This document shows positions 40,928 through 48,807 of a DNA stretch of 64,000 bases, piece after piece. The position numbers and the translations under genes are program-made. How positions within the stretch are numbered: position 1 is the stretch's first letter; the number at the start of each line of letters is the position of its first letter. The stretch is from NCBI RefSeq assembly GCF_054482595.1, contig NZ_CM137008.1; one strand, written 5' to 3'. The notes beneath the pieces are model-generated. The model searched no databases. It was not told the origin of the DNA and saw only the letters and a program-made list of their open reading frames with translations.

Positions 40928-42577
40928 CTAACCCTCCATACCGCTAATGGTGATCATGTCGTCGTCCGCTTTAGCGCGATAAACTCGCCGCCCACCAGCA
41001 TAAAACTTGATTTCGCTGCTGGATTTGGCCTGTTCAGTAATCAAATCAACGATTTCGTCCAGTAGAACAATGGCATTTTTATCGTATTTATTGGGGCGAT
41101 AGCCATTGTTTAATTTGTTCAAAAGTTCAAATAAATTAAGTCCGATACGAACTGGTAACAGAGAGTTTTGCCCAACTTTTAAATGCACGTCGAAGCCAGT
41201 AGGGTGGGCCGTATTTTTATTGCGGATGGCCTCCCAGTCAGGTTTCAATTCGACTGGCGCGGTTATTTTTACCCCACCATATTCACCTAAAAAGAACTCT
41301 TCTTTTTGCATACTCAATTCCGGCGCTTTGCGGTTTGCATAGCGCTGAATACCAGCAATAAGTTCGGATGTATAAAACCGGTTCAGTGCTTTTTTCTGCT
41401 CTGAGTCAGCGATGTAATTTTTGTGCAGATGCCAGATTTCTGAATAATGCTCAAATAAAGATTCATTGAAGAATACGGAAAATTTCTGATGATAATTATT
41501 CCCCAGAGATTCATCCTGCAGCAACCAGAAGAGCCGAATTAATGAAGCCGCATCACCCGGATTAACGCACTGGCGATCAAATCTAATGTGTAATGGCGCG
41601 AGTGCAGCTAAAAAATCATCCAGTTCAGGGTCAACCAGGCCCAATTCGTAGCGCAAAATAAACTGATCGATTTCATAGGTGTGCAGCCTAGCAGGATCAA
41701 AATCAGAAACTTTTTTAATCAGGTCGTTTTCTGCCCCAGTGAAAAGATTATCAAATAAATACCCCGGCCCCATAAGCAAATGATGCAGAAAATCCAATAG
41801 AGTTCGGGTTGTCACAAACTGATCTTTAATCAGGCGGGCCTTAAAGAGCTGAGTGATGAGAACATCCTGAACACCCGGCAGACAAAGTAATTTATAGTTA
41901 GCAACTTCTTTCAGCTCAGGGTTAACGGTCTCATCATGTCGAAAAATAAACTGAAACAAATTACTATCATCATTACGGGTTAAATTATCCAGTAATGTTT
42001 TAATAAACGATGAATACTGTTTTTTTTCATTAAACTGGAATTTAGGGTAATGCTCAAAGTCAAAAAAAGAACAATGCCCACTGCGGTATGGGCGGCTTTC
42101 TTCCTGATCTGCTGACAAGAAAGAATCGATCGCAGTGCGGATCGCCAGATGGCATTCAGCACCTTCTCTGGCAAAATTGGCGAGCATCCCGGTATTGATG
42201 CCTATAAGCAAAGGAGATGAGTATTGGTGATGATTGCTAAATAAATCATTTAAAGCATCAATAGCTGATTGCCGGGGAGCAAAGCTGTGTGTTGCATCCA
42301 GATGAAAACTAAAGCGCTGCTGATAACGAGGGTTTGACTTACAACGGGTCAAAATTTCGGACTTTCCATCACCACTACTGCCACACAAAAAGATGATTTC
42401 ACCGGGCTTAGCAACATCCAGATAACGTTGCAGCTCAGTTTCAATTTCTTGTTTAACAAAGAGTTGTTCTTTTAACTGATCGAACTCATCCTTTTGACGA
42501 TGCGTTACCGTGGTTACGGAAAACGAAGATGACTTCGCAAGTACACCCAACGCTTTACGTAATGTGATTGCGCTCAT
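40928..42577 (-). CDS. dptF: DptF/DndF-like P-loop ATPase
   Basis: 549 aa; Walker A LCGSSGDGKSE near the N-terminus; first gene of the three-gene operon. Confidence 0.6.
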   Translation of the reverse strand: MSAITLRKALGVLAKSSSFSVTTVTHRQKDEFDQLKEQLFVKQEIETELQRYLDVAKPGEIIFLCGSSGDGKSEILTRCKSNPRYQQRFSFHLDATHSFAPRQSAIDALNDLFSNHHQYSSPLLIGINTGMLANFAREGAECHLAIRTAIDSFLSADQEESRPYRSGHCSFFDFEHYPKFQFNEKKQYSSFIKTLLDNLTRNDDSNLFQFIFRHDETVNPELKEVANYKLLCLPGVQDVLITQLFKARLIKDQFVTTRTLLDFLHHLLMGPGYLFDNLFTGAENDLIKKVSDFDPARLHTYEIDQFILRYELGLVDPELDDFLAALAPLHIRFDRQCVNPGDAASLIRLFWLLQDESLGNNYHQKFSVFFNESLFEHYSEIWHLHKNYIADSEQKKALNRFYTSELIAGIQRYANRKAPELSMQKEEFFLGEYGGVKITAPVELKPDWEAIRNKNTAHPTGFDVHLKVGQNSLLPVRIGLNLFELLNKLNNGYRPNKYDKNAIVLLDEIVDLITEQAKSSSEIKFYAGGRRVYRAKADDDMITISGMEG

Positions 42578-42814
42578 AACTTCATGTTCTCAAAAGTAGG
42601 ATTATACCTATTCTATAAAAGCTATCCGCTGATATCTATAGGCACTTTGAGACATTTATTACGGGCAATTTTAAAATTGTATCTTTTCCATCCGTACACA
42701 AAACACATCCAGAGATGGCGGGGAAAATCCATCTATCAACCAGTTCCACTTTGGAAATTGCTTGATTAGTAGTATCTTAATCAAACACATACGCTAAATA
42801 TTACCCCCGATTGA

Positions 42815-42966
42815 TTTTCGCATAGTCAAACAGCGTAATCGATCTCTCCCTATTCGCATCCAGAAAATCAGCCCACCATACTGCAAATCAGCTCGCGCTC
42901 ATCCAGATGTTCTGCCTTATGGATATACGCCCCCTTACCGATGTGACTCATCTGACGTTCAGCCGC
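42815..42966 (-). pseudogene. Degenerate 3' fragment of a second P4-type integrase gene
   Basis: About 110-150 bp of nucleotide similarity to the 3' region of the intact integrase (45990..46100), e.g. GCATCCAGAAAATC.GCCCACCAT and CTCATCTGACGTTCA; frame broken. Confidence 0.55.
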
Positions 42967-43072
42967 TTTATCTCATGTTGTTCTGGTCTCAATACTTCCA
43001 TGCCGTTGCAATTACCTCTTAAACCAGCCCTTACCATTTTTATGGGTACGATAAGAAAACTTTATCGGGCAC

Positions 43073-43098
43073 GATCGATTTTATCGATCGATTCGATC
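43073..43098. promoter_or_regulatory. Cluster of three GATC sites upstream of the outer-membrane protein gene
   Basis: GATC at 43073, 43086 and 43095 within overlapping ATCGAT/TCGATCGA palindromes, about 90-120 bp upstream of the start at 43190. Confidence 0.35.
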
Positions 43099-43189
43099 GA
43101 AAACATTCCTTTTACCTTATCTTTTTCATGGTCTTAGAATGAGCAACCCCATTTATCGTTCGGGGAAAGTGATAGCGGAGATGATTGAA

Positions 43190-43930
43190 ATGAATAAGGT
43201 TATTGCGGTTTCAGCGCTTGCCATGGCAGGCATGTTTTCGACCCAGGCTCTGGCTGATGAAAGCAAAACAGGCTTTTATGTGACCGGTAAAGCAGGTGCT
43301 TCTGTTATGTCACTTGCAGACCAGCGTTTCCTGTCGGGGGATGGAGAGGAAACATCAAAATATAAAGGCGGTGATGGCCATGATACGGTATTCAGTGGCG
43401 GTATCGCGGCCGGTTATGATTTTTACCCGCAGTTCAGTATTCCGGTTCGTACGGAACTGGAGTTTTACGCTCGTGGAAAAGCTGATTCGAAGTATAACGT
43501 AGATAAAGACAGCTGGTCAGGCGGTTACTGGCGTGATGACCTGAAGAATGAGGTGTCAGTCAACACACTGATGCTGAATGCGTACTATGACTTCCGGAAT
43601 GACAGTGCATTCACACCATGGGTATCTGCAGGGATTGGCTACGCCAGAATTCACCAGAAAACAACCGGTATCAGTACCTGGGATTATGGGTACGGAAGCA
43701 GTGGTCGCGAATCGTTGTCACGTTCAGGCTCTGCTGACAACTTCGCATGGAGCCTTGGCGCGGGTGTCCGCTATGACGTAACCCCGGATATCGCTCTGGA
43801 CCTCAGCTATCGCTATCTTGATGCAGGTGATAGCAGTGTGAGTTACAAGGACGAGTGGGGCGATAAATATAAGTCAGAAGTTGATGTTAAAAGTCATGAC
43901 ATCCTGCTTGGTGTGACTTATAACTTCTGA
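43190..43930 (+). CDS. Outer-membrane beta-barrel protein (OmpA-like/opacity family)
   Basis: Signal peptide MNKVIAVSALAMAGMFSTQALA, alternating amphipathic strands, C-terminal ...LLGVTYNF. ORF track start 43139; 43190 preferred. Confidence 0.7.
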   Translation: MNKVIAVSALAMAGMFSTQALADESKTGFYVTGKAGASVMSLADQRFLSGDGEETSKYKGGDGHDTVFSGGIAAGYDFYPQFSIPVRTELEFYARGKADSKYNVDKDSWSGGYWRDDLKNEVSVNTLMLNAYYDFRNDSAFTPWVSAGIGYARIHQKTTGISTWDYGYGSSGRESLSRSGSADNFAWSLGAGVRYDVTPDIALDLSYRYLDAGDSSVSYKDEWGDKYKSEVDVKSHDILLGVTYNF

Positions 43931-44103: not shown

Positions 44104-45603
44104 ATGAATATCAGAAAACTGTTTTGTCCGGGAAACACACCCCGGATTTTATTGTTTTTATTCTTTTTTGTTGTTTCTGCAATAACCACAATTGCATGCG
44201 GATACACTGAGAAGAATGCCACAGGAAATGTGCTGCTTCTGTTTCTCCTTCTTCTCCTTGCACACAGAAATACCCTCACATCCATTACAGCGCTGTTATT
44301 TCTGTTCTGTTGTGCACTGTATGCGCCTGCGGGTATGACGTACGGTAAAATCAACAACAGTTTTATTGTCGCGTTGCTGCAGACCACGGCTGATGAGGCT
44401 GCAGAGTTTACCGGGATGATTCCTGTTTATCATTTTCTGGTCAGTGCCGCGATTCTGGTATTCATGGTGATTTTCTGGCGGACACACCACCGCGGTCACC
44501 GTAACTGGCTGGCACTGCTGCTATTCGTATTATGCTCTGTAAACAGCTGGCCGTTGCGGATGGTTAAAGGAACTGTTGTGGGGACAACTGACACATTGCG
44601 TGAAATGCAGCGTTATAAACAACTGAGTCAGCACGGGGCTGATAACTGGAAAATCCTGCCGGGTGTGCCGTTGTATGACACGATTGTTATCGTTACTGGT
44701 GAGAGTGTGCGCAGGGATTATATGTCGGTATATGGCTATCCCGTGCCAACCACGCCGTGGCTGAATACTGCTCCCGGTTTATTTATTGACGGCTATACAT
44801 CGACAGCAGCCAGTACCGTACCTTCCCTGAGCCGGACACTGATTTATGACTATGAGCAGAACCCTGACTCCGGCAACAACGTGGTGGCGCTGGCAGCAAA
44901 AGCAGGATACAGCACATGGTGGATATCCAATCAGGGAAAACTGGGAGAGCATGACACACGCATCTCTGTTATTGCTTCTGATGCGGAGCATACCGTTTTC
45001 CTCAAGAAAGGCAGCTTCGCTTCCCGTAAAACGGATGACATGTTGTTGTTACAGGAAACAGAACGTGCGCTGGCGGATAAATCCTCGCCGAAGGTGATTT
45101 TCCTGCACATGATTGGCTCTCATCCGAATCCGTGTGACCGACTTAACTCCTGGCCGAATTATTACCTGGAGCAGTATCCCCGAAAGATTGCCTGTTACCT
45201 CGCCAGCATCAGTAAACTGGATAACTTTCTCGGTCAGCTTGATGGTATCCTTCGCCGGCATTCCCGTCACTTTGCAATGCTTTACTTTTCTGACCATGGG
45301 CTGTCGGTCAGCGACAGTGCTAATCCTGTTCATCATGATGGTCATGTGCAGGGGGGCTACAGCGTTCCCCTGATTATTACCGCCAGTGACATCACGTCTC
45401 ATCAGTCCGTCAGCAGGAAAATCAGTGCCCGTAATTTCGCAGGCATTTTTCAGTGGCTGACCGGTATTCGTACCGAAAATATAACGCCATTCAATCCGCT
45501 GACAGACGAAGATAATGAACCCGTTATGGTTTTTAACGGAGAGAAAAATGTGCCGGCAGACAGTCTGAAACCGCAGCCACTTATTCTTCCGGACCACAGG
45601 TAA
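44104..45603 (+). CDS. Phosphoethanolamine transferase (EptA/OpgE-like; sulfatase domain with N-terminal TM segments)
   Basis: 499 aa; N-terminal hydrophobic helices then a sulfatase-like catalytic region; corresponds in position to the yjgX-type gene of leuX islands. Confidence 0.7.
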   Translation: MNIRKLFCPGNTPRILLFLFFFVVSAITTIACGYTEKNATGNVLLLFLLLLLAHRNTLTSITALLFLFCCALYAPAGMTYGKINNSFIVALLQTTADEAAEFTGMIPVYHFLVSAAILVFMVIFWRTHHRGHRNWLALLLFVLCSVNSWPLRMVKGTVVGTTDTLREMQRYKQLSQHGADNWKILPGVPLYDTIVIVTGESVRRDYMSVYGYPVPTTPWLNTAPGLFIDGYTSTAASTVPSLSRTLIYDYEQNPDSGNNVVALAAKAGYSTWWISNQGKLGEHDTRISVIASDAEHTVFLKKGSFASRKTDDMLLLQETERALADKSSPKVIFLHMIGSHPNPCDRLNSWPNYYLEQYPRKIACYLASISKLDNFLGQLDGILRRHSRHFAMLYFSDHGLSVSDSANPVHHDGHVQGGYSVPLIITASDITSHQSVSRKISARNFAGIFQWLTGIRTENITPFNPLTDEDNEPVMVFNGEKNVPADSLKPQPLILPDHR

Positions 45604-45721
45604 TCATATATGGCAAACTGTAATACAGTCTCTTGTACTGAAAAGGATTCTGTATAGAATAGAACCTGTATTCATATCAGCACAAGGGACCACCAAATCC
45701 CGGCAACATTCCTTACGTCAG

Positions 45722-45756
45722 TTATCCCGCATCACCCTGTGGGTGCGGGATTTTTT
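45722..45756 (+). terminator. Rho-independent terminator after the phosphoethanolamine transferase gene
   Basis: ATCCCGCA...TGCGGGAT stem followed by TTTTTT. Confidence 0.55.
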
Positions 45757-45926
45757 ATGATGTTTCTTTTTATTGAATATATATAAATAACGAATAACTG
45801 CGGATTCTGATAATCCACCTGCAGGGAGCAATCCGGTAAACATTTAATACATCAGTTAATATCGTTTTGCCTTTTTAACAAAGAAAATATTCATGGAGTA
45901 AGTTCCCGGGCATTTGCCCGGGATGA

Positions 45927-47192
45927 TTACTGTTTTAATGGATTATTAATCTTTGCATATTCAAATGGACTGATAAATTTTTCTCTGTTTGCATCCAGAA
46001 AATCGGCCCACCATTGTAGCATCAAGCGGCGTTCTTCCAGATGCTCTGCTTTATGGATATACGCGGCCCTCACTGAATTTCGCTCCATGTGGCTCATCTG
46101 ACGTTCAACAGCATCACGAGACCACAAACCTGATTCGACCAATGAACTACAGGCCATTGTTCGAAAGCCATGACCACAAACCTCTACTTTTGTATCATAC
46201 CCCATGACCCGTAACGCACTATTTACCGTATTCTCACTCATGGGTTTGTGCGAATCGTGATCACCAATAAATATCAAGTCATGGGCCCCACAAAACTGTT
46301 TTATCTGCTTTAAAATTGCAAGAGCTTGCGTTGAAAGAGGCACTAGATGCGTTGTACGCATTTTTGAGCCTCTATGGGAATGTTTCACTCCAGGAATAGG
46401 CTCCCGCTCCGGTGGGATAGTCCATATAGACGCTTCGAAATCGATCTCTGACCAACGAGCAAAACGCAGCTCACTGGACCGAATAAAGATCAGCAAAGAG
46501 AGTTCTGTCGCCCATCGGGTTAGCGGCCTACCAGTATAGCTATCTATTTTTGTAAGCAACTCAGGGATGCGCTTTAATTCAAGCGCGGGACGATGTTGTC
46601 GATTACAGGAAGCAACCGCCCCAGCCATCTCTTGTGCCGGGTTATAATCAATTAACCCACTTTGCACTGCATAGCGCATGATGGCTGTAGTGCGCTGCTG
46701 AAGACGAGCGGCCACTTCAAGACGTCCAGACATTTCTACGGCCTTAATGGGTGCTAATAAATCTCGAGTTTTTAACTCAGCGATATTACGTTCACCAAGC
46801 GCTGCAAAAAGATTATCTTCCAGACTTTTTAGCACACGATGGGCGTGATCTTCAGACCACTTTTTATTGGTGCCATGCCACTCAATCGCGACTTCTTTAA
46901 AGGTTCGTGCTTTACTCTGTTCAACCTTATCATTTTTCTTTTTGTCTCCCGGATCGACGCCATTCGCAAGCAGCTTACGCGCCTCGTCACGACGTACTCT
47001 GGCATCCGCTAGTGTGATTTCAGGATAAACCCCAAGTGCCAGCATTTTTTGCTTTCCCTCATAACGGTACTGCAAACGCCAGTACTTAGAACCATTTGGA
47101 TGGACAAGCAGATGCATACCGCCACCATCAGTCAGCTTATATTGCTTATCCGTTGGCTTGGCTGCTCTGACTTTGATATCTGTTAATGCCAT
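45927..47192 (-). CDS. intB: P4-type tyrosine integrase next to leuX
   Basis: 421 aa; N-terminal AP2-like DNA-binding region and C-terminal catalytic region with conserved R...HGFR...Y; immediately 3' of tRNA-Leu. Confidence 0.9.
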   Translation of the reverse strand: MALTDIKVRAAKPTDKQYKLTDGGGMHLLVHPNGSKYWRLQYRYEGKQKMLALGVYPEITLADARVRRDEARKLLANGVDPGDKKKNDKVEQSKARTFKEVAIEWHGTNKKWSEDHAHRVLKSLEDNLFAALGERNIAELKTRDLLAPIKAVEMSGRLEVAARLQQRTTAIMRYAVQSGLIDYNPAQEMAGAVASCNRQHRPALELKRIPELLTKIDSYTGRPLTRWATELSLLIFIRSSELRFARWSEIDFEASIWTIPPEREPIPGVKHSHRGSKMRTTHLVPLSTQALAILKQIKQFCGAHDLIFIGDHDSHKPMSENTVNSALRVMGYDTKVEVCGHGFRTMACSSLVESGLWSRDAVERQMSHMERNSVRAAYIHKAEHLEERRLMLQWWADFLDANREKFISPFEYAKINNPLKQ

Positions 47193-47341
47193 GCGTATTC
47201 CCTCCCTGTTGGTACAAGCATTATCGAACCGGAAATACCATCATCTGTACCAACATATGTTGGTAGATGTACGTTGATATCGGTTGACCTTGAGAGAGTT
47301 AATATAGCGGGAAAGGTAGATAAACACTGGATTTCAGGCAT

Positions 47342-47372
47342 AAAAAAAGACCTCAGTTGAGGTCTATTTACA
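47342..47372 (-). terminator. leuX terminator
   Basis: GACCTCAGTTGAGGTC hairpin followed by a T-run on the tRNA strand. Confidence 0.6.
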
Positions 47373-47378
47373 TACTTT

Positions 47379-47463
47379 TGGTGCCGAAGGCCGGACTCGA
47401 ACCGGCACGTATTTCTACGGTTGATTTTGAATCAACTGCGTCTACCGATTTCGCCACTTCGGC
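47379..47463 (-). tRNA. leuX: tRNA-Leu (anticodon CAA)
   Basis: Reverse complement reads GCCGAAGTGGCGAAATCGGTAGACGCAGTTGATTCAAAATCAACCGTAGAAATACGTGCCGGTTCGAGTCCGGCCTTCGGCACCA; CAA anticodon loop, long variable arm, encoded CCA. Confidence 0.95.
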
Positions 47464-47658
47464 ACTGAAGAGGTATGCGGAAAACGTTGTGGATTATACC
47501 TGTCGCACGCCACCATGCAAGCGCCAGCTTGCTCGCACCTCGCTAAGTGCTGAAATTTTCAGCATTGCATACAGCGATGTGTAACCTTTGTCACACTCCA
47601 GGCACCCCGCCCTGCCATGCTCTACACTTCCCAGACAACACCAGAGAAGGACCAAAAA

Positions 47659-48678
47659 ATGTCGATGATAAAAAGCTATGCCGCAAAAGAAGCAGGCGGC
47701 GAATTGGAAGTTTATGAGTACGATCCCGGTGAACTGAAGCCATAAGATGTTGAAGTGCAGGTGGATTACTGCGGGATCTGCCATTCCGATCTGTCGATGA
47801 TCGATAACGAATGGGGATTTTCACAATATCCGCTGGTTGCCGGGCATGAGGTGATTGGGCGCGTGGTGGCACTCGGGAGCGCCGCGCAGGATAAAGGTTT
47901 GCAGGTCGGTCAGCGTGTCGGGATTGGCTGGACGGCGCGTAGCTGTGGTCACTGCGACGCCTGTATTAGCGGTAATCAGATCAACTGCGAGCAAGGTGCG
48001 GTGCCGACGATTATGAATCGCGGTGGCTTTGCCGAGAAGTTACGTGCGGACTGGCAATGGGTGATTCCACTGCCAGAAAATATTGATATCGAGTCCGCCG
48101 GGCCGCTGTTGTGCGGCGGTATCACGGTCTTTAAACCACTGTTGATGCACCATATCACTGCTACCAGCCGCGTTGGGGTAATTGGTATTGGCGGGCTGGG
48201 GCATATCGCTATAAAACTTCTGCACGCAATGGGATGCGAGGTGACGGCCTTTAGTTCTAATCCGGCGAAAGAGCAGGAAGTACTGGCGATGGGTGCCGAT
48301 AAAGTGGTGAATAGCCGCGATCCGCAGGCACTGAAAGCCCTGTCGGGGCAGTTTGATCTCATTATCAATACTGTGAACGTCAGCCTCGACTGGCAGCCTT
48401 ATTTTGAGGCGCTGACCTATGGCGGTAATTTCCATACAGTCGGTGCGGTTCTCACGCCGTTGCCGGTTCCGGCCTTTACGCTGATTGCGGGCGATCGCAG
48501 TGTCTCTGGCTCTGCTACCGGTACACCTTATGAGTTGCGTAAGCTGATGCGCTTTGCCGCCCGCAGCAAGGTTGCGCCGACTACCGAACTGTTCCCGATG
48601 TCGAAAATTAACGACGCCATCCAGCATGTGCGCGACGGTAAGGCGCGTTACCGCGTGGTTCTGAAAGCTGACTTCTGA
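47659..48678 (+). pseudogene. ahr: NADPH-dependent aldehyde reductase Ahr (YjgB) with premature in-frame TAA at codon 29
   Basis: ATG 47659 encodes [28 protein letters not shown] then TAA (47743..47745); same frame continues through the zinc-ADH body (ORF 47755..48678 from GTG). Confidence 0.75.
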
Positions 48679-48807
48679 TCTCTTTGCCGGGTGCCTGTCG
48701 CCCGGCACTTAAATCTCTTTGGAAGGCGTCTCGCAATCTGCTGAATTTAGCGGTGAAGAGTGCGCAGCCGTTGCCTATACTCCAGGCAGGAAACTGGAGG
48801 AAATCTC

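Follow-up and report, generated by a model that had tools for sequence, protein, structure and literature searches.

Within the genomic island at leuX lies a short piece of DNA that resembles the end of the island's own integrase gene, and it raises the question of whether a second integrative element once inserted at this tRNA gene beside the first. The window analyzed here, 64,000 nucleotides of the E. coli chromosome around leuX, contains the following features in this part of the island.

40928–42577, minus strand: dptF, the first dnd/dpt cargo gene at the stop-codon side of the fragment.
42786–42961, minus strand: int', remains of a P4-family tyrosine integrase gene, decayed and reduced to the last ~60 codons at the 3' end.
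42962–43011, minus strand: junction-proximal segment, nearly identical in all module copies.
43012–43189, plus strand: upstream region of the outer membrane protein (OMP) gene, conserved with the module and containing three GATC sites and a promoter-like site.
43190–43930, plus strand: gene for an Hra/Tia/Hek-family OMP of 246 aa, 68% identical to a protein named Tia by PGAP.
44104–45603, plus strand: phosphoethanolamine transferase gene (ept; 499 aa), the intact counterpart of the K-12 pseudogene yjgX (91% DNA identity).
45927–47192, minus strand: intact P4-family integrase gene (421 aa), immediately downstream of the leuX 3' end.
47379–47463, minus strand: leuX, tRNA-Leu(CAA), the integration site and the single tRNA found by ARAGORN.

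A blastn search of 42700–43140 against the whole window returned one non-self match, in which 42810–42961 aligned on the same strand with 45945–46107 (119 of 165 columns identical, or 72%, with 15 gap columns; E = 3e-19). The correspondence of int' to the 3' end of the intact integrase gene was also evident in a MAFFT alignment. The preliminary description of this DNA had noted a same-orientation similarity with frame-breaking differences, and the pairwise comparison it proposed bore this out: the similarity is significant, and the differences comprise a deletion and several indels. The matching part of the intact gene extends beyond the 45990–46100 noted earlier, and the integrase-derived stretch, ~42786–42961, is slightly wider than the 42815–42966 given there. 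The location of the fragment between the dnd/dpt module and the OMP/phosphoethanolamine transferase module was likewise confirmed, with dptF on one side and the OMP and ept genes on the other.

On the minus strand, int' translates as …AERQMSH..GKGAYIHKAEHLDERE… (the same first-frame stretch, before the frameshift, can be rendered …AERQMSH…AYIHKAEHLDERE…) and continues after the frameshift as …WWADFLDANRE…YAKIN…. This translation aligns with approximately the last 60 residues of the 421-aa integrase, which ends in …AVERQMSHMERNSVRAAYIHKAEHLEERRLMLQWWADFLDANREKFISPFEYAKINNPLKQ and the stop codon, and the region includes the box with the presumed catalytic tyrosine. The intact protein contains Arm-DNA-bind_3 (residues 3–87), Phage_int_M (98–192), and Phage_integrase (207–383) domains. 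The fragment covers only residues ~360–421, against a catalytic domain at residues 207–383, and is frameshifted, so it offers no complete open reading frame with arm-binding, central, and catalytic domains. Set against its sister copies, int' of the window has lost 12 nt and gained a single nucleotide, an additional C, and a short insertion close to where the gene originally stopped; less decayed sisters gave 61-aa alignments with 90–95% identity to residues 361–421. Its homology to the family is clear at the DNA level, both to the adjacent integrase and to another leuX integrase allele (see below). Judged by these features, int' is a pseudogene remnant and not a working member of the integrase family. 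It is also a known feature, an ordinary decayed integrase remnant already annotated in RefSeq: in strain W2-5, on identical DNA, PGAP labels window positions 42801–42966 as an "integrase; frameshifted; incomplete; missing N-terminus" pseudogene. The adjoining segment at 42962–43011 is weakly integrase-like (…QRHGSIETRTARDKAA… vs. …GHGFRTMACSSLVESGLWSRDAV…), and BLASTP extended the alignment beyond the junction by nine residues with one integrase allele only. This segment may be an older and more decayed continuation of int', an assignment that is uncertain.

The intact integrase is the ortholog of K-12 intB, with 97.5% DNA identity over 45682–47600 (leuX and flanks included), and the transferase matches CptA/EptA-type models below their curated cut-offs. 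The fragment region is identical in W2-5 and near-identical in many other strains, including 55989 and O157:H7 86-24. The RefSeq gene order in W2-5 is dndBCDE, three small genes, dptH-dptG-dptF, the "integrase" pseudogene, the OMP gene, the phosphoethanolamine transferase gene, the intact integrase gene, leuX, ahr, yjgR, lptGF, and pepA. Several differences were observed among these flanks. The ahr (yjgB) gene adjoining leuX (window 47659–48678) has a premature stop at codon 29 (~47743–47745), where the protein reads …GELKP followed by the stop and the K-12 protein reads …GELRPQ…; the remaining frame is intact and nearly identical to K-12, and ahr in W2-5 is a shorter, frameshifted remnant. 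The idnK-idnDOTR cluster found between ahr and yjgR in K-12 (L020 11737–16782) is absent at window ~48680–48760 and also from W2-5 and TBU0218. The distal part of the island (window 1–22000) contains many IS fragments and autotransporter genes, and a block with dcuC, malic enzyme, and fumarase genes, adjoining IS1 copies, has opposite orientations in W2-5 and the window, which suggests an IS-mediated inversion between the strains.

The preliminary description took int' as a sign of tandem accretion at leuX. In such a history, a second element would have inserted at leuX beside the dnd/dpt island, and the integrase gene of the dnd island would have been truncated in place. Part of this account stands. 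A second P4-family integrase remnant does lie exactly on a module boundary, in the orientation of the intact integrase, and separates distinct cargo modules as in a tandem array. Its stop-codon side abuts the dnd/dpt genes, as an integrase would in a simple integrase-cargo island such as that of TBU0218. The parts of Ho et al. (2015, PMC4373003) that concern leuX dnd islands, including that of strain 55989, describe them as tRNA-Leu-associated and mosaic and propose multiple integration or recombination events. The internal att sites that tandem accretion would predict were not found, however: when the window was searched with the 3' end of leuX, allowing at most 3 mismatches in 16–25 nt or 6 in 30 nt, the tRNA gene itself was the only match, and no leuX 3'-end repeat lies between remnant and integrase in the other leuX carriers examined. 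The closest intact relative of int' is the leuX integrase allele of TBU0218 (87.5% identity) and not the adjacent integrase (72%).

The comparison of module content across islands bears most directly on this question. Distribution was assessed in 5,426 complete E. coli genomes using counts from BLAST coverage thresholds. The fragment plus the next 50 bp (42790–43010) was covered to at least 80% in 592 genomes. The stretch from the truncation point into the OMP upstream region (42940–43200) reached the same coverage in 1,106, a count that may include copies without integrase-derived bases. Exact window-type copies of int' occur in 132 genomes. Base-by-base reading was confined to nine copies, namely the window and eight others: EM10-18-28 (EM10) and strain 142 at leuX, EC052 and E-1246 at pheV, GN02050 at pheU, FDAARGOS_1262 at selC, and two whose tRNA site lies outside the fetched stretch (EC18, with the module as in EC052, and DETEC-P649, with remnant and cargo as in GN02050). 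The junction, …CTCATCTGACGTTCA followed directly by GCCGCTTTATCTC…, is identical in all nine, and the ~230 bp from the junction to the OMP gene are common to them. Every copy read has the same order of tRNA, integrase, sometimes extra genes, phosphoethanolamine transferase, Hra/Tia-family OMP, remnant, and variable cargo. The window module therefore has the makeup of an integrase-proximal cassette of Hra/Tia OMP and YjgX-type transferase genes found in E. coli tRNA islands, and it aligned with the cassettes of E-1246, GN02050, EM10, and UTI89 at 89.8%, 86.5%, 85.2%, and 94.5% identity, respectively. A search with the exact junction 19-mer in one genome per GTDB species, which is a weak test, gave no match in enterobacteria and four chance matches in unrelated bacteria. 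Within E. coli, the junction is a precise and widely shared landmark, present in up to a fifth of complete genomes.

Since the junction is shared with pheV, pheU, and selC islands, the truncation predates the island in the window. The junction is specific to neither locus nor lineage; together with the ~230 bp to its right, it recurs at leuX, pheV, pheU, and selC beside unrelated cargo. The linkage of int' is with the OMP/ept cassette and not with dnd/dpt: other dpt clusters examined have sodC/IS elements or HTH/AbiE genes as neighbors and no integrase remnant. Accretion local to the dnd island is very unlikely on this evidence, and the shared junction already largely refutes it. A tandem array of integrase-transferase elements stays plausible as the ultimate origin of the truncation, but not as an event at this locus, given one truncation junction across four tRNA loci with different cargo. 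The fragment is an old scar traveling with a common OMP cassette, not the sign of a recent second insertion here. Taken alone, int' matters little, and integrase remnants at the module boundaries of mosaic islands are commonplace; the lesson is that not every internal integrase fragment is evidence of local tandem insertion.

How the scar came to lie beside different cargo was addressed by comparing alleles. The stop-proximal 181 bp of the remnants fall into at least three allele types that are 72–80% alike. Type A, carried by the window and the majority of the other copies, is similar to the intact TBU0218 leuX integrase; type B (EM10) occurs at ≥99% identity in 21 genomes and type C (E-1246) at ≥99% identity in 268. 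In thousands of genomes, the match between intact integrases and the fragments ends at position 180–181, which is the junction. The junction-proximal ~60 bp differs among the three types, so more than one layer of recombination or conversion must be assumed.

Two pairs of leuX islands can be compared as empty and filled sites. TBU0218 has the order leuX-int-SBD/HNH nuclease, and strain 142 has leuX-int-…ept-OMP-int'-SBD/HNH nuclease; the 1.15 kb that they share is 95.3% identical and ends at the junction. K-12 has leuX-intB-(IS2)-yjgX-…nanXY, and EM10 has leuX-int-ept-tia-int'-yjgX-…nanXY, with a remnant that runs on into a K-12 KpLE2-like intB-3'/yjgX segment. Divergence between EM10 and K-12 is 0.4% in the 241-bp intergenic region and 0%, 6.7%, and 21.3% in successive thirds of the remnant from stop to junction. 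Between strain 142 and TBU0218 it is 2.6% in the cargo, 4.9% in the intergenic region, and 5.0%, 11.7%, and 21.2% in successive parts of the remnant. The remnants are hybrids, in which the stop-proximal part goes with the neighboring cargo and the junction-proximal part is another allele; the non-uniform divergence in both pairs places crossovers inside the fragment, at different positions.

A similar mosaic is seen on the other side of the cassette. Over their last ~130 bp, the leuX integrase of the window and the pheV integrase of E-1246 agree at ~96% of positions; the switch comes at ~46055, and identity falls below 60% in the 5' half, which presumably determines site choice. In the selC island, a further partial integrase of P4 type (453 bp) stands between the island's own integrase and the cassette. 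Every carrier has the cassette flanked by a direct repeat, made up of int' on one side and the 3' end of the integrase on the other (72–80% over ~160–200 bp); in EM10 the repeat is ~90% identical over 1.7 kb and the transferase gene is duplicated too. Judged by this arrangement, int' is the outer copy of a diverged integrase-3'-end direct repeat that brackets a ~3-kb OMP and transferase cassette, with 45945–46107 as its partner in the window. The two window repeats share identical runs of at most 15 nt at 72% overall identity, so recombination between them now would be inefficient.

Collectively, these comparisons make it very probable that int' is the non-functional relic of one ancient truncation, after which scar and cassette spread by homologous recombination. 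An integrase gene would have been truncated once, long ago, probably on the collapse of a tandem array of two int-ept elements, and the EM10/K-12 comparison resembles such a two-element state. The scar and cassette would then have moved among leuX, pheV, pheU, and selC islands through recombination of either the scar or the cassette-side integrase 3' end with resident integrase genes, each move leaving the resident cargo attached to the scar. Two routes could give this same product: new tandem arrays collapsing through scar-integrase recombination, or a double crossover of incoming DNA. In the lineage of the window, the cargo is dnd/dpt, and the scar would have decayed further by the 12-nt deletion and frameshifts, as expected of neutral DNA. 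We infer this mechanism as history, not as observed activity. The single shared junction points to a single origin of the Hra/Tia and transferase cassette, and it indicates that islands at the four tRNA sites exchange segments via homology in their integrase genes. A bolder version, possible but doubtful, makes the remnant and its fixed junction one arm of the cassette, which would have no recombinase of its own and would hitch-hike among these islands by recombining homologously with the conserved 3' ends of resident P4-type integrase genes. The resident integrase would stay intact while the resident cargo, mostly defense systems, would be pushed behind the hybrid scar. If true, integrase 3' ends would be a general portable homology arm for island remodeling in E. 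coli.

A different explanation of the common endpoint treats the OMP-ept cassette as a discrete mobile unit with one target, a position lying 181 bp ahead of the stop codon of P4-type integrase genes. The incoming unit would supply a replacement 3' end and displace the resident one, much as tRNA-targeting elements do with the tRNA 3' end. At least three divergent integrase 3' alleles do end at the same nucleotide and are followed by the same right-hand sequence, the fragment matches in intact integrases stop at that position, and the final ~130 bp of the cassette-side integrase recur in integrases that accompany the cassette at another tRNA site. Insertion at a fixed point is nevertheless highly unlikely. 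In two independent pairs, the divergence between fragment and resident allele rises from 0–5% to ~21% well before the junction, and the switch points on the integrase side vary, being ~130 bp from the end in one pair and gradual over a few hundred bp in others. The partial integrase of the selC island also counts against the model, and apart from the flanking integrase the cassette has no recombinase. Fixed-site insertion was rejected as the main model on the divergence gradients, which put the crossovers inside the fragment.

The homologous spread of a decayed scar can also be set against retention of int' for a present function, as a regulatory region of the divergent OMP gene, a small RNA, or a short peptide. 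In favor of such a role, int' lies divergently upstream of the OMP gene, and the window and EC052 are more alike over the fragment and junction-proximal segment (85.7%) than over the OMP-containing block (74%). The role is nevertheless extremely unlikely: an OMP gene can be expected to be less conserved because of its surface loops (Montero et al., PMC5539235), copies of int' gather frameshifts, internal stops, and the 12-nt deletion, their alleles are only 72–80% alike, and UTI89-type modules have lost int' but retain both the OMP gene and ept. Rfam gave no match at E ≤ 1 for 42400–43300, a scan of the same region located no promoter- or terminator-like site inside 42786–42961, and no minus-strand open reading frame of at least 40 aa spans int'. 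Near the OMP gene, a single promoter-like site was seen, at 43111–43140, ~150 bp beyond int'. The fragment thus lacks the RNA-family match and the internal promoter or terminator signals expected of a functional non-coding RNA or regulatory element, and no sign of a present function was found in these scans.

The cargo abutting the stop codon of the remnant varies, and is given here under PGAP names. In the window it is dnd/dpt. Elsewhere it is a type I restriction-modification system with an AAA ATPase; a NotI-like restriction-modification pair (GN02050 and DETEC-P649); a phosphorothioate-binding HNH nuclease (strain 142); SIR2 with a type I system; a TerB-N/ATPase/helicase trio; or, in EM10, K-12-like yjgX and nanXY. 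Going by these names, six of the seven contexts are anti-phage or restriction systems. In several of them the cargo starts a few bases past the original stop (window ~42773–42800; L004 ~28900; L010 ~5840; also L006, L012, and L013), and the site right after the P4-type integrase stop codon behaves like a defense-gene hotspot. In GN02050 (L006 8580–8745) and DETEC-P649 (L012 2429–2594), another integrase 3' remnant, 166 bp long and inverted relative to the first, follows beyond the NotI-like pair, so that the cargo of these pheU-type islands is bracketed by two inverted integrase remnants. An intact integrase followed directly by dptF, which would be the empty site for the dnd cargo, did not occur among the other dpt clusters examined.

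The closest known arrangement at the same tRNA site is K-12 KpLE2, which shares with the window the order of integrase then transferase. KpLE2 has a single integrase, lacks both an Hra/Tia gene and an integrase remnant, and is effectively the unfilled state, whereas the window has the complete cassette and a second integrase 3' end after it. At other sites, the layout is that of LAA module I, the subtilase-encoding island, and the tia islands, in which ~3.3 kb separates a P4-type integrase beside a tRNA gene from a gene for an Hra/Tia/Hek/Hes-family OMP; in LAA, Montero et al. (PMC5539235) place hes 3.3 kb from the pheV integrase (pheV-int-…-hes). This layout of Hra modules was found here at pheV, pheU, selC, and leuX. 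Unlike the Hra-family modules of pathogenicity islands, the window has dnd/dpt rather than virulence genes as downstream cargo. YjgX/YhbX-type transferases are reported at all of the pheU, pheV, and selC insertions studied by Saile et al. (PMC6174562). The mentions of integrases in PMC5539235 and PMC6174562 describe no remnant beyond the OMP gene.

For dnd islands, passages of PMC4373003 give the integrase as the first gene and dptFGH beside dndBCDE. The dnd island of strain 55989 carries the identical fragment junction (99.8%), and those passages do not single out the remnant or its spread outside dnd islands. In a non-exhaustive survey of relevant passages in PMC4373003, PMC5539235, and PMC6174562, the single shared junction and the mosaic pattern were not found stated, which is a modest point. 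The int' repeat also invites comparison with the tRNA 3'-end duplications at att sites, where likewise an intact gene 3' end lies on one side and a partial copy on the other. Here the repeated gene is the integrase itself, the repeat is 160–200 bp long and 72–80% identical instead of a short exact att core, and the crossover positions vary, which argues for homologous rather than site-specific recombination.

A separate observation concerns the region upstream of the OMP gene. Three GATC sites at 43073, 43086, and 43095 (spacing 13 and 9 nt) lie in a near-palindrome, cGATCGATTTTATCGATCGATTCGATCg, at 43073–43098, just upstream of the promoter-like TTTACC-18-TAGAAT at 43111–43140 and ~95 nt before the start of the Hra/Tia-family OMP gene. 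Only one other such cluster exists in the 64 kb, and each of the seven further cassettes checked (L004, L005, L006, L008, L009, L010, and L013) has these sites at the same position and with the same spacing. In our own comparison, ATCGATTTTATCGAT agrees with the consensus for an OxyR half-site at 9 of the 11 positions specified. In phase-variable gtr operons (PMC2909390), two GATC sites 13 nt apart likewise fall within an OxyR half-site, which by analogy suggests Dam/OxyR phase variation of Hra/Tia-family adhesins. A limited literature search found no paper describing such phase variation for this OMP family, and the GATC/OxyR-like arrangement may be worth more than int' itself.
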